A DNA stretch of 6,825 nt from a virus. Lineage: Duplodnaviria > Heunggongvirae > Uroviricota > Caudoviricetes. Positions 1 to 3,000 of this stretch are shown piece after piece (position 1 is the first letter of the stretch; each line of letters begins with the position of its first letter). The stretch is taken from IMG/VR virus record IMGVR_UViG_2609460344_000002; one strand, written 5' to 3'. Made by a program: the position numbers.

Positions 1-3000
1 CTTCCGATCTATCAAAACACTGAATACCCGACGGGTGAATATTCTGAAGGGTGAACAGCGTCGTGTCAGTGGCAGTGCACGTGTTTCCCTCAAGCGTCAT
101 ATCTGGCTCAGGGACGCCGGGCAGTGCCGTCTCTGTGGTCGTGTGGTTGACCTCTGTGACAGTGAACTCGATCACCGAATTGCACTTCAGTTCGGTGGTG
201 GTAATGAGGAGACGAATCTCTGGACGCTCTGTACCGAATGCCATCGACAAAAGTCTGCTCGTGAAGCGGCGAGTGATATGCCGGACCCGACGCTGCCGGA
301 GGTGTCCGGAGGTAGTGGCAGAGAGGACGACATCATCGGACTGTAACCCGACCCCGGGGGGGTATCATCCGGCGTAAAAAACGATCGCTTTGGACACCGC
401 GCCCCCTCTCACGCAGAGAAAAAATTCCCGTTTCAGGGCAGTTAACATGTTAACTGGCTGCCCGGGCATTTTTGCGGTTTTTATCTTTATTATTCAGTTT
501 GTTGTGCGGAAAAAATGTTAACAGGCTTTTTCAGCAAATGTTAACCAGGCAGCAGTTAACATTTGCGGCATGAGACGCCGGGAAAAATGGGCTGAACCAT
601 ACCCGGCTGAGTGCGTTCTGGACCCGGGAGGAGGCTGTGCTGACAACGCAAAAACGAAAATTTGCGCTGGCGCTCATGTCCGGGAAAAACAAAACAGCGT
701 CAGCCATTGCCGCCGGTTATTCGGCGAAGACAGCCAGGGTTAAAGGCTCGCAGCTGGCAAAAGATCCGGAGGTGCTTGCGTTTATAGCCCGTAAACAATG
801 CGAGACGGTGGAGGTGGATGAGGTTCCTGTTTACCGGCAGAAAAAATCAGAGCAGGAGGATAAACCCCGTCGCCGTGAGGCGGCTGCAATACCACAGCCG
901 GACGAAAACAATCCGGAGATGCCACCGTCCGCGGTGATGTCTCCTGGTATTGAATATATGGAGGATGGTCTTCCCGATCCGGTGAAAGCCATGGGGCGGA
1001 TCCTGGTGGAAAACCTCTGCATTGATCCGAAACTGGCACTGGATGCGGCCTGGCGTCTGGCGCAGTTCACGCACCATAAAAAAGGGGATACCGGGAAAAA
1101 ATCGGCAAAAGGTGATGCCGCGAAAAAAGCGGCTAACCGTTTTGCGGTGCCACCGCCACCCCGACTGGTGGTGAATAACGATAATGAGGGCAACGGATGA
1201 TACCTGTATGGAGCACAGCCTGCCCGGACTGGGCAGAGCGCCTGAAAAAGGGGCTGTCGATTATTCCGGATCCGATTTATCCGGACGAGGCCGCACATGC
1301 CCTGGCGATTTTTAAACAACTGCGGATTGTGGATGCACCGGGTAGCCCGACGTTCGGGGAGTCCTGTGCACCGTGGGTGTTTGACCTGGTGGCGGCCCTG
1401 TTTGGCTCCTACGATGCGCAGACCGGTGTACGCCATATCAAGGAAGTTTTTATCCTTATCCCCAAGAAAAACTCGAAGTCCACGCTGGCCGCGGGGATCA
1501 TGATGACTGCACTGTTACTGAACTGGCGGCAGGCGGCGGGTTACACGATTCTGGCCCCGACTGTGGAGGTGGCGGCCAACGCCTTCAACCCTGCCCGGGA
1601 TATGGTACGACGTGACGATGATCTGGATGACCTCTGCCAGGTACAGACCCATACCGGTGCTGGCGGTGTATGACCCGACGGTACAGTTTGAATTCTGGTT
1701 CTCAGAAAAACGCATCACGAACACGGCACAGGTGGAAACCTCTGCCCGTTATCTGGGGACTGGCAGTCAGTGGACTGTCTCCGGCCCGCACATTAAGCCT
1801 GGGAAGGATTTCTGGTTTTATGTACGCAGCGTTAACCTGGTGGGGAAATCTGCTTTTGTTGAAGCCAGTGGACGGGCCAGCAATGATGCAGAAGGGTATC
1901 TGGGGCTGTTTCGGGAAAAAATAGGAAAACTGCATCTGGCTCAGGGGCTGTGGGAGCTGATAGACAACAGCCAGCTTGCGGATGAGATGGCGGAGATGAA
2001 GACCACCATCACCGAAACCCGCAATGAAATCACACAGACGGTCAGTAAAACGCTGGAGGACCAGAGCGCCACCATACAGCAGATACAGCGCGTGCAGAAG
2101 GACACAAATGATGAATCTCGGCTATTCAGTGGATGAGGCCTTTCTGTACCGGGAGTACCGTAAAGCCCGGGAAGCCGGTGAAGAGACATTCCGGGGGTTC
2201 ATGTCAAAACACGCCAATGTGGAAATTGGTCTTGCCCTGCGCTCTGACCGCTGGGCGGGGGCTGATTTCTGGGAAGAGCAGGGCCGTTGTATCAGCCTGG
2301 ACGATATCCTGCGTCGTGCTGATGTGGTGACGGTGGGGATTGACGGCGGAGGGCTGGATGATCTGCTGGGGATGTATGTGATTGGGCGTGACCGGGAGAC
2401 CCGCGAATGGCTGGGCTGGGGCCATGCCTGGGCGCATGAAACCGCGGTGGTCCGACGGAAGAGCGAGGCGTCCCGGTTTCAGGATCTTGTTGCCTGTGGA
2501 GATATGACCATTGTCCGGCGTGTCGGGGATGACACGGCGGAAGTGGCGGAATATGTGCGTCGCATTCATGAGGCTGAGTTACTGGACCATATCGGTATTG
2601 ACCCGTCAGGGGTGGGACAGATTCTGGATTCACTGGCGGAAGCCGGGATCCCCGACGGAATTGTGGTGGGGATAAGCCAGGGCTGGAAACTGGGCGGGGC
2701 CATTAAAACCACCGAGCGCAAACTGGCTGAAGGGGTGCTGGTGCATGGTGACCAGCCCCTGATGGCCTGGTGTGTCGGCAATGCCCGGGTGGAGCCTAAA
2801 GGTAACGCCATTCTTATCACCAAACAGGCCAGTGGACGGGGAAAAATTGACCCGCTGATGGCGCTGTTCAATGCGGTCTCCCTGATGTCCCTTAACCCGG
2901 AACCGAAAAAGAAAGAATATGCGGTTTTTTTCATATAACCCTGTTCACACTGTAACCATCACGAACCGCTCCGGCGGTTTTTTTATTTTCAGGAGGCTGA

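Follow-up and report, generated by a model that had tools for sequence, protein, structure and literature searches.

Organisation of contig JNRD01000127.1

The DNA analysed here (the window, 6825 bp) is the entire draft contig JNRD01000127.1, a public Escherichia coli sequence. It encodes a prophage head module in which the large terminase gene, terL, is interrupted by a fragment of the tail gene gpJ. The following features were found:

1–10 bp, no strand: putative Illumina adapter 3′ tail, CTTCCGATCT, at the contig end; the motif is present nowhere else but at position 1
11–346 bp, + strand: HNH endonuclease gene, 5′-end cut by the contig start (Pfam HNH, E = 2.6e-8)
637–1200 bp, + strand: terminase small subunit, 187 aa (Pfam Terminase_2; terS in the W46 annotation)
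1197–1653 bp, + strand: N-terminal fragment of terL (terL-N), nt 1–457, aa 1–152, A-like haplotype (TerL_ATPase; identity to L001)
1652–1653 bp, no strand: left junction, TA common to terL and gpJ (base-by-base comparison)
1654–2113 bp, + strand: gpJ fragment, gpJ nt 2191–2650/2651, aa 731–884, in frame +1 relative to terL-N (Ig_J_second, E = 1.6e-32)
2113–2114 bp, no strand: right junction; the A at 2114 is both gpJ nt 2651 and terL nt 838
2114–2938 bp, + strand: C-terminal part of terL (terL-C), nt 838–1662, aa 280–553, nuclease domain, B-type haplotype (TerL_nuclease)
3002–4939 bp, + strand: prohead protease-major capsid fusion, 645 aa (Pfam Peptidase_S78 and Phage_capsid)
5151–6515 bp, + strand: portal protein, 454 aa (Pfam Phage_portal, E = 1.5e-81)
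6512–6825 bp, + strand: start of a downstream gene with 162-bp tandem repeats, cut by the contig end (gene call)

Bases 1–10, which we take to be the remnant of an Illumina adapter, had no match in any relative or in either of two contigs from sister assemblies (L004 and L006). All of these, relatives and sister contigs alike, read ...CAGAGCAGA before base 11, and L004 and L006 contain the full-length HNH gene (121 aa). The remnant suggests poor read or contig hygiene in this assembly. At the other end, the window shared its last base with locus L013, and Logan contigs stopped 19 nt sooner. The exact capsid fusion and portal proteins were indexed in 8451 and 285 collection blocks respectively, and are thus too common to lead to further sister contigs.

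The intact relative used for comparison was that of E. coli W46 (L001), which was 99.7–99.8% identical. Window 11–1653 bp aligned to L001 3001–4643 bp and window 2114–6825 bp to L001 5024–9736 bp; the tandem repeat at the end of the window has a period of 162 bp and 3.3 copies in L001.

The gpJ segment and the missing part of terL

The initial annotation had placed a terL N-terminal fragment, a J segment and a terL C-terminal part in frames 0, 1 and 2, and this arrangement was borne out, with the boundaries refined to 1653, 1654–2113 and 2114. Intact terL in relatives is 553 aa long; the window has, in place of a single ORF with the PF03354 ATPase and PF20441 nuclease domains, three ORFs in three frames. 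The terL-N ORF (1197–1673 bp, frame 0) reads out of frame past 1653 and reaches a stop codon at 1671–1673, six codons after the junction. The ORF of the gpJ segment lies at 1612–2136 bp (frame 1) and that of terL-C at 2024–2938 bp (frame 2).

Comparison with intact terL showed that 380 bp (aa 153–279), the second half of the ATPase domain, are missing from the window. In intact TerL the Pfam ATPase domain occupies aa 63–224 and matches profile positions 5–164, whereas the terL-N ORF matched TerL_ATPase at positions 5–81 of 178 only. The missing residues include GTLIDELW, which by our own reading of the motif may be the Walker B segment with the catalytic glutamate; the ATPase domain is thus incomplete, with this region absent. 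The nuclease domain was present (PF20441 profile positions 70–280 of 286), and from nt 837/838 (window 2113) onward the DNA matched that of intact B-type terL at 100%. With 460 bp gained and 380 bp lost, the net change is +80 bp, so that no two of the three pieces share a frame. The initial annotation was right that no functional terminase can be made from this sequence as it stands.

The foreign DNA (1654–2113 bp, 460 bp) was 99.35% identical, with three mismatches, to gpJ nt 2191–2651, corresponding to aa 731–884 of the 1157-aa gpJ. This identity was found over 460–463 bp to annotated gpJ genes, and the arrangement is far beyond chance. Together with the Ig_J_second match, the identity upholds the earlier identification of the insert as J-like and not a native terminase domain. 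The segment did not have the full J architecture (FNIII-A, Phage-tail_3, Ig_J, Ig_J_second, Phage_Tail_Tip, Ig_GpJ_C); on the domain map of intact gpJ it covered most of Ig_J_second, followed by a linker and the very start of the tail-tip domain.

The gpJ genes to which the segment was 99.35% identical include those of O104:H4-type prophages. In O104:H4 this donor-type gpJ belongs to a lambda-type prophage whose head module differs; in NMBU-W12E19 (L003) it accompanies a B-type terL. The gpJ of the W46 prophage was rejected as the donor, being only about 81% identical. The three differences from O104-type gpJ were considered as private marks or marks of error-prone synthesis and were also rejected, as most gpJ genes have CC at nt 2276–2277 and T2337 occurs naturally in a minority. 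Over its final 314 bp the segment was identical to natural gpJ alleles.

Junctions, sister assemblies and haplotypes

A check of both junctions for microhomology, as the initial annotation had proposed, found TA on the left and A or GA on the right. At the left junction the TA is common to both parents and is part of a near-microhomology, TA(T)CCGG. This junction was identical in three sister assemblies, and no polymorphic site adjoined it among 35 terL loci. It therefore has what is expected of a deletion scar (short microhomology, reproducibility and a position away from assembly forks) and looks real, as a microhomology deletion or fusion.

The right junction behaved differently. The sister assemblies were 100% identical to the window over 11–2114 bp and diverged exactly at 2114, where L004 ends (gpJ nt 2651). 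L006 continues through gpJ into lom, its continuation being 99.7% identical to natural gpJ, which is unbroken there. The overlap of the parents at this point is the single A, or GA against B-type terL (base 2113, G, is B-type terL nt 837). An exact look-up of the 156-aa product that spans the right junction returned JNRD01000127.1 alone. The junction was not found in 5426 complete E. coli genomes, IMG/VR or JGI metagenomes, and no Logan assembly carried the product of either junction. No adapter sequence was present at the right junction, and a literature search with the JNRB, JNRC and JNRD accessions and the GCA ids of the three isolates, whose assemblies are GCA_000704505.1, GCA_000704465.1 and GCA_000704485.1, gave no matches.

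The sequence that follows the right junction is found repeatedly as a contig of its own. A contig that starts at terL nt 838 encodes a 274-aa product (window 2114–2938 bp), which was present in at least 23 contigs of unrelated Logan, ENA and NCBI assemblies. Among ten of these, eight started exactly at base 2114 (AATCTCGG) and two started 2 nt earlier; five of the ten were 4693–4696 bp long and ended at the equivalent of window 6806, at the tandem repeat. These recurrent starts and ends mark window 2114–6825 bp as a standard fork-to-fork assembly unit. A look-up of the 186-aa terL-C product returned only unrelated frameshifted or truncated terL genes.

The two arms of terL, moreover, are of different haplotypes. 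On the left the arm is A-like, with 4–6 differences from L001 and L029 and about 50 from B; its terL-N was 99.76% identical to L001 and about 97% identical to B-type loci, and L004 and L006 have it unchanged. The right arm matches B exactly, with no differences from L013, L024 and L026, all of which encode an intact 553-aa terL. This identity had suggested L013 as a sister strain, which was rejected as L024 and L026, unrelated complete genomes, match the right arm at 100% as well. A block of SNPs distinguishes A-like from B haplotypes; terL nt 837 is the last of them, and the 503 bases after it are identical. At nt 1341 the window has A, the B-type allele, and all 11 natural T837 loci with data have G. 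No natural A-like locus with this right arm was found among about 35 loci or the best complete-genome matches. The head module is often present in several copies within a single genome, and L006 starts one base past an A/B SNP; contig ends in these assemblies thus do lie at haplotype forks, and from this start we infer that both haplotypes are present in the strain.

On the gpJ side, a fork at nt 2651 was harder to explain. A C/T difference at gpJ nt 2652, with T in NMBU-W12E19 (L003), was considered as a paralog fork at the end of the segment and rejected: nt 2652 was C in 149 of 150 occurrences among the loci examined, and T was found in one of 693 genomes (2868 places). L003 was the top-ranked match only because its T allows BLAST to extend the alignment. 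The common gpJ paralog classes part 3 nt further on. IMG/VR scans revealed no second copy of the allele carried by the J segment, and these scans, like those for gpJ with T2652 or C2652 and those for a middle segment of A-type terL that is intact, yielded nothing from the sister genomes.

Origin of the arrangement and comparison with known systems

The explanation that we favour, with modest confidence, is that a genuine terL-to-gpJ deletion scar was followed by an artefactual end-to-end join of contigs. The first unit (11–2114 bp) would be the scar of a defective lambdoid prophage, in which illegitimate recombination at the 2-bp microhomology cut terL after nt 457 and fused it to gpJ nt 2191; a junction of this type would remove the head and tail genes that lie between the breakpoints. 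Its true continuation would be the rest of gpJ and lom, like that of L006. The second unit (2114–6825 bp) would be the terL-C, capsid and portal stretch of a second, intact B-type copy of the head module, typically a contig of its own in short-read assemblies, running from terL nt 838, just past the last SNP, to the tandem repeat. In this one assembly both units would have been abutted with a 1-nt overlap, presumably by scaffolding or contig joining guided by read pairs or by homology across terL. Both this joining step and the second prophage copy in this strain are what we infer from the contigs. The right junction has several marks of an assembly chimera: contigs end on both sides of it elsewhere, its flanks are of different haplotypes and the junction itself is absent elsewhere. 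If the join is artefactual, the replacement of the ATPase core by J is not a biological structure.

Several points speak against an artefact. The join shares just one or two bases, whereas ordinary assembler errors run through shared repeats, and we cannot name a software step that would abut two blunt ends; a misjoin made at random would not be expected to return to terL 380 bp further on with its orientation kept, so the artefact must have been guided. The end of L004 at gpJ nt 2651 needs a fork at that base in a second isolate; the rarity of T2652 turns the fork argument against the artefact, and the fork would follow directly if the strain had a real gpJ-to-terL junction. Finally, a fork at terL nt 838 needs the strain to have either a T837-type copy with an intact middle segment or the junction itself.

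These points lead to a second explanation, possible if doubtful, in which the patch is real and a single prophage carries terL-N, a 460-bp copy of gpJ, terL-C, then the tail genes and an intact gpJ. It would have arisen when replication or repair switched template twice in one event (FoSTeS/MMBIR style), leaving terL at nt 457, copying gpJ nt 2191–2651 from about 17 kb downstream and returning at terL nt 838, with 1–2 bp of microhomology at each switch. The insert does copy another locus in the same orientation, and the microhomology at both junctions is typical of illegitimate events. In each gene the two breakpoints are near one another (380 bp apart in terL and 460 bp in gpJ) and the orientation is kept, as is natural for a patch. 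The segment would then repeat as much as 460 bp of the gpJ in the same prophage, and short-read assemblers could therefore not resolve the sequence beyond it; the three sister outcomes at 2114 (a stop, gpJ and terL-C) fit such an unresolved two-way fork, and natural gpJ polymorphism does not account for the end of L004. The k-mers of a contig built by a de Bruijn assembler must normally be present in the reads, which also counts for a real patch. On the other hand, a real patch would need its terL breakpoint to fall on the recurrent assembly fork (nt 838) by chance, and it would unite terL halves of haplotypes that were never together in the loci and best complete-genome matches compared. The right junction was confined to one draft contig, L006 contradicts it, and templated patches are rare in bacteria relative to plain deletions.

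It is improbable, in our estimate, that the two junctions are both real but lie on separate molecules or at separate places, one being a terL-N/gpJ(2191–end)/lom deletion and the other a gpJ(1–2651)/terL(838 on) joint such as that of a tandem duplication. The contig would then have crossed from the first structure to the second within the gpJ segment that they have in common, a classical mis-resolution of a repeat. This would account for the L004 fork at 2114, the L006 continuation and the haplotype switch, and the 314 bp shared with natural gpJ alleles make a repeat that confuses short reads plausible; it requires, however, two independent illegitimate events with breakpoints within 380–460 bp of each other in both genes, and no contig running from the N-terminal part of gpJ into terL-C was found in collections other than the sister assemblies themselves. 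A functional mosaic with the terminase ATPase core swapped for a tail-protein module, the domain swap raised by the initial annotation, has practically no probability, as nothing but the side-by-side arrangement of the pieces speaks for it, whereas three pieces in three frames already refute it, terL-N soon runs into a stop codon, the ATPase domain lacks its second half and the segment has the DNA of an ordinary gpJ.

The remaining options of the initial annotation, illegitimate recombination or an assembly chimera, would thus both apply, each at its own junction: recombination at the left, which three sister assemblies share, and a chimera at the right, which is unique, coincides with contig ends and switches haplotype. 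A single element with a replaced core, as had been implied, is not established. On either reading, this terL is dead and the prophage that carries it defective.

An artefactual join would be a caution that gene-in-gene chimeras in prophage-rich E. coli drafts can stem from joined assembly units; such chimeras are recognisable without the reads, by comparing breakpoints with contig ends in other assemblies and by asking whether the flanks share a haplotype. A real patch would be a clean natural case of a long templated insertion at a bacterial prophage deletion, relevant to rearrangement mechanisms, while the understanding of terminases or tail proteins would be unchanged. With its direct repeat of 460 bp, the prophage would also be prone to homologous recombination that removes the entire structural module, giving the structure of L006.

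Templated insertions are produced by template switching or microhomology-mediated break-induced replication (break-induced replication is reviewed in PMC3678771). The window, if real, resembles them: 460 bp are copied from about 17 kb away without inversion, each end has microhomology and there is a small local deletion. It differs in that its breakpoint lies at an assembly fork and its flanks come from different haplotypes, and it is known from contig sequence alone.

Defective and cryptic lambdoid prophages of E. coli decay by internal deletion. The left junction of the window, which joins terL nt 457 to gpJ nt 2191 and would inactivate packaging, is alike and in no way unusual; the deletion may lie within one prophage. 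Short-read artefacts at multi-copy E. coli lambdoid prophage modules take the form of contig breaks at the forks between near-identical copies, as was seen here. The usual repeat-collapse artefact runs through the shared repeat, whereas only one or two bases are shared here, so that a joining or scaffolding step is needed under the favoured explanation. Finally, HK97-like head modules (HNH, terS, terL, protease-capsid fusion and portal; for example W46 and TOE17) have the same gene order as the window and 99.7–100% DNA identity to it outside the gpJ segment, but their terL is an intact 553-aa gene whereas that of the window is interrupted.

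Structure of the interrupted terL gene

The 6825 bp window was identical to the whole of a public draft contig, JNRD01000127.1 (assembly GCA_000704505.1), and its genes are those at the left end of a lambdoid E. coli prophage's structural region.

Gene order in the window
HNH endonuclease
Small terminase (terS)
Large terminase (terL), interrupted: terL to 1653, gpJ at 1654–2113, terL from 2114
3002–4939, prohead protease (Peptidase_S78) and major capsid protein, one 645-aa fusion protein
Portal protein
Repeat-containing gene, start only (tandem repeats at 6676–6825)

The initial annotation had described a lambda-J-like fragment in another reading frame replacing the terL ATPase core, with both terL halves still flanking it. 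The three open reading frames that it named were present with their Pfam matches, and the fragment was confirmed on alignment with the closest intact relative, the E. coli W46 locus (L001). Positions 11–1653 corresponded to 3001–4643 of L001 with 4 substitutions and 2114–6825 to 5024–9736 with 7 substitutions and one 1-bp gap, whereas the intervening 460 bp showed 99.35% identity to nucleotides 2191–2651 of gpJ from O104:H4-type prophages (amino acids 731–884 of 1157). The terL sequence replaced was 380 bp long (amino acids 153–279) and encoded the C-terminal half of the ATPase domain and the linker to the nuclease domain, giving a net length change of +80 bp. Neither terL half shared a reading frame with the gpJ piece, which excludes the functional domain swap that had been among the suggested origins. 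Microhomology was short at both junctions: TA was common to both parents at the left (with a near-match, TA(T)CCGG) and A at the right, or GA when compared with B-type terL (defined below).

Positions 1–10 of the window (CTTCCGATCT) were matched by no relative; before base 11 all relatives and both sister contigs read ...CAGAGCAGA instead. As CTTCCGATCT resembles the last 3′ bases of what we take to be an Illumina adapter, the reads behind the window's assembly were apparently left untrimmed.

Two features were noted at the other end of the window. A homopolymer at 6491–6496 (L001 9401–9406), G5 in the window versus G6 in W46, sets the reading of the portal gene, which either ends at 454 aa and is followed by a separate gene (ATGA overlap, 6512–6515) or runs into that gene to give an 859–861-aa 'portal'. 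RefSeq labels the gene in this region 'frameshifted' in strains TOE17 and NMBU-W12E19, and public genomes commonly show either state. The difference could be natural length variation of the G tract or sequencing error. Tandem repeats of 162 bp were present in the gene after the portal (L001 9648–10180; 3.3 copies with 94% matches in W46). This gene differed in length between prophages (products of 299–407 aa), and contigs of short-read assemblies repeatedly ended in it.

The two junctions in sister assemblies

The exact 158-aa product across the left junction was found in three contigs, the window and its sisters JNRB01000114.1 (L004) and JNRC01000165.1 (L006). The accession numbers of the three assemblies run consecutively, and the contigs were 100% identical over window 11–2114. 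The junction was not found in 5426 complete E. coli genomes, and none of 35 terL loci had a polymorphic site adjoining the terL breakpoint. We take the left junction to be a real scar of illegitimate recombination.

The 156-aa product across the right junction occurred in the window contig only, and the junction sequence was not found in complete E. coli genomes, IMG/VR or JGI metagenomes. The sister contigs diverged exactly at window 2114. L004 terminated at that base, and L006 continued for a further 1063 bp through the remainder of gpJ into lom, with 99.7% identity to natural gpJ alleles and no break at the equivalent point. The end of L004 at gpJ nt 2651 implies a fork in the assembly graph there in a second isolate. 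Natural gpJ variation does not supply such a fork, since the base following the shared gpJ 35-mer was C in 149 of 150 occurrences, the sole T allele was carried by 1 of 693 genomes and the common gpJ paralog classes split 3 nt beyond the 2651/2652 point.

The contig start at terL nt 838 and the terL haplotypes

The peptide from window 2114–2938, which is the gene-caller product of a contig starting at terL nt 838, turned up in 23 contigs, drawn from unrelated assemblies in Logan, ENA and NCBI; among the contigs shown, 8 of 10 started exactly with AATCTCGG. Five Logan contigs of 4693–4696 bp stopped at the equivalent of window 6806, within the same tandem repeat in which the window (6825) and the L013 contig also terminated. 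The sequence from 2114 onward is thus a recurrent assembly unit.

The terL loci fell into an A-like set with T at nt 837 (L001, L029 and eleven IMG/VR loci) and a B-type set with G (L013, L024–L026, L028 and L030–L033). The two differed at 36 sites through nt 837 and then shared 503 identical bases, so that assembly of a genome or sample with both haplotypes would produce a contig beginning at nt 838. In the sister assemblies, contig ends do fall at A/B forks: L006 started one base past an A/B SNP, which suggests that the strain carries both haplotypes.

The left arm of the window was A-like up to the junction (4–6 differences from L001 and L029, about 50 from B-type, the last at terL nt 441, 447 and 453). 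The right arm had no differences in 4712 bp from B-type L013, L024 and L026, each with an intact 553-aa terL, and was identical in none of the 11 natural T837 loci with data; nt 1341 was G in all of these and the B-type A in the window. No complete genome matched both arms above 99.8%.

Other arrangements were noted in further loci. In metagenome contig L027 (1–7800; ENA ERZ27246428 k141_27096) terL homology began only at nt 262, preceded by genes for a D5-type primase and another kind of small terminase and by a weak capsid-like gene; the contig looks like a phage satellite attached to the head module seen in the window, but could also be chimeric. L009 (1–1219; ENA ERZ21776582 NODE_628) placed terL from L001 5288 onward directly against a yhfS-like chromosomal gene on the opposite strand, and is another truncated terL or a chimeric short contig. 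The B-type prophages of NMBU-W12E19 and TOE17 held an ompC-type porin gene between minor tail genes (L187 10737–11870 and L188 19816–20949), and the TOE17 tail cluster additionally held sodC, clpP-like and Arc-like genes.

Origin of the terL arrangement

On balance, a real left scar followed by an artefactual right join is the probable explanation. A lambdoid prophage with an A-type head module would have lost terL nt 458 to gpJ nt 2190 through microhomology, leaving lysis genes, HNH, terS, the terL/gpJ fusion and lom (L004 plus L006), and a second prophage with a B-type module would be the source of the terL 3′ part, capsid and portal. Read pairs or terL homology may have linked the first contig, its terL part 460 bp from the end, to the nt 838 unit; because the gap between them would be negative (380 minus 460 bp), a joining step, which we infer, could abut the two.

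A real templated patch is possible but less probable. If the strain had a true gpJ-to-terL junction, the gpJ nt 2651 fork and the three assembler outcomes would follow directly, with no added assumptions, whereas the artefact must leave that fork in the clone unexplained. The overlap of 1–2 bases is unlike ordinary repeat-mediated misassembly, and a return to terL 380 bp further on, with orientation unchanged, fits a patch or guided joining, not random error. The patch would in turn require its terL breakpoint to coincide by chance with the recurrent nt 838 fork, so that the two readings each rest on one coincidence, of about equal size. The other evidence somewhat favours the artefact because the haplotype switches between the terL arms, L006 continues through gpJ, the right junction is unique to one adapter-contaminated draft and long templated patches are rarer in bacteria than plain deletions. 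Two real junctions on different molecules, with the contig wrongly crossing the gpJ repeat, are very improbable.

The terL/gpJ arrangement is best treated as a provisional draft-assembly structure, and nothing in the window indicated a new biological system. Apart from the gpJ piece, the window carries an HK97-like head module of an ordinary kind that is very common in E. coli prophages; its exact capsid fusion sequence occurred in 8451 indexed blocks of the collection, and single O157 genomes held as many as three copies. That prophages decay by deletion, and that short reads fail on repeated prophage modules, is well established (PMC2821320, PMC6602927).
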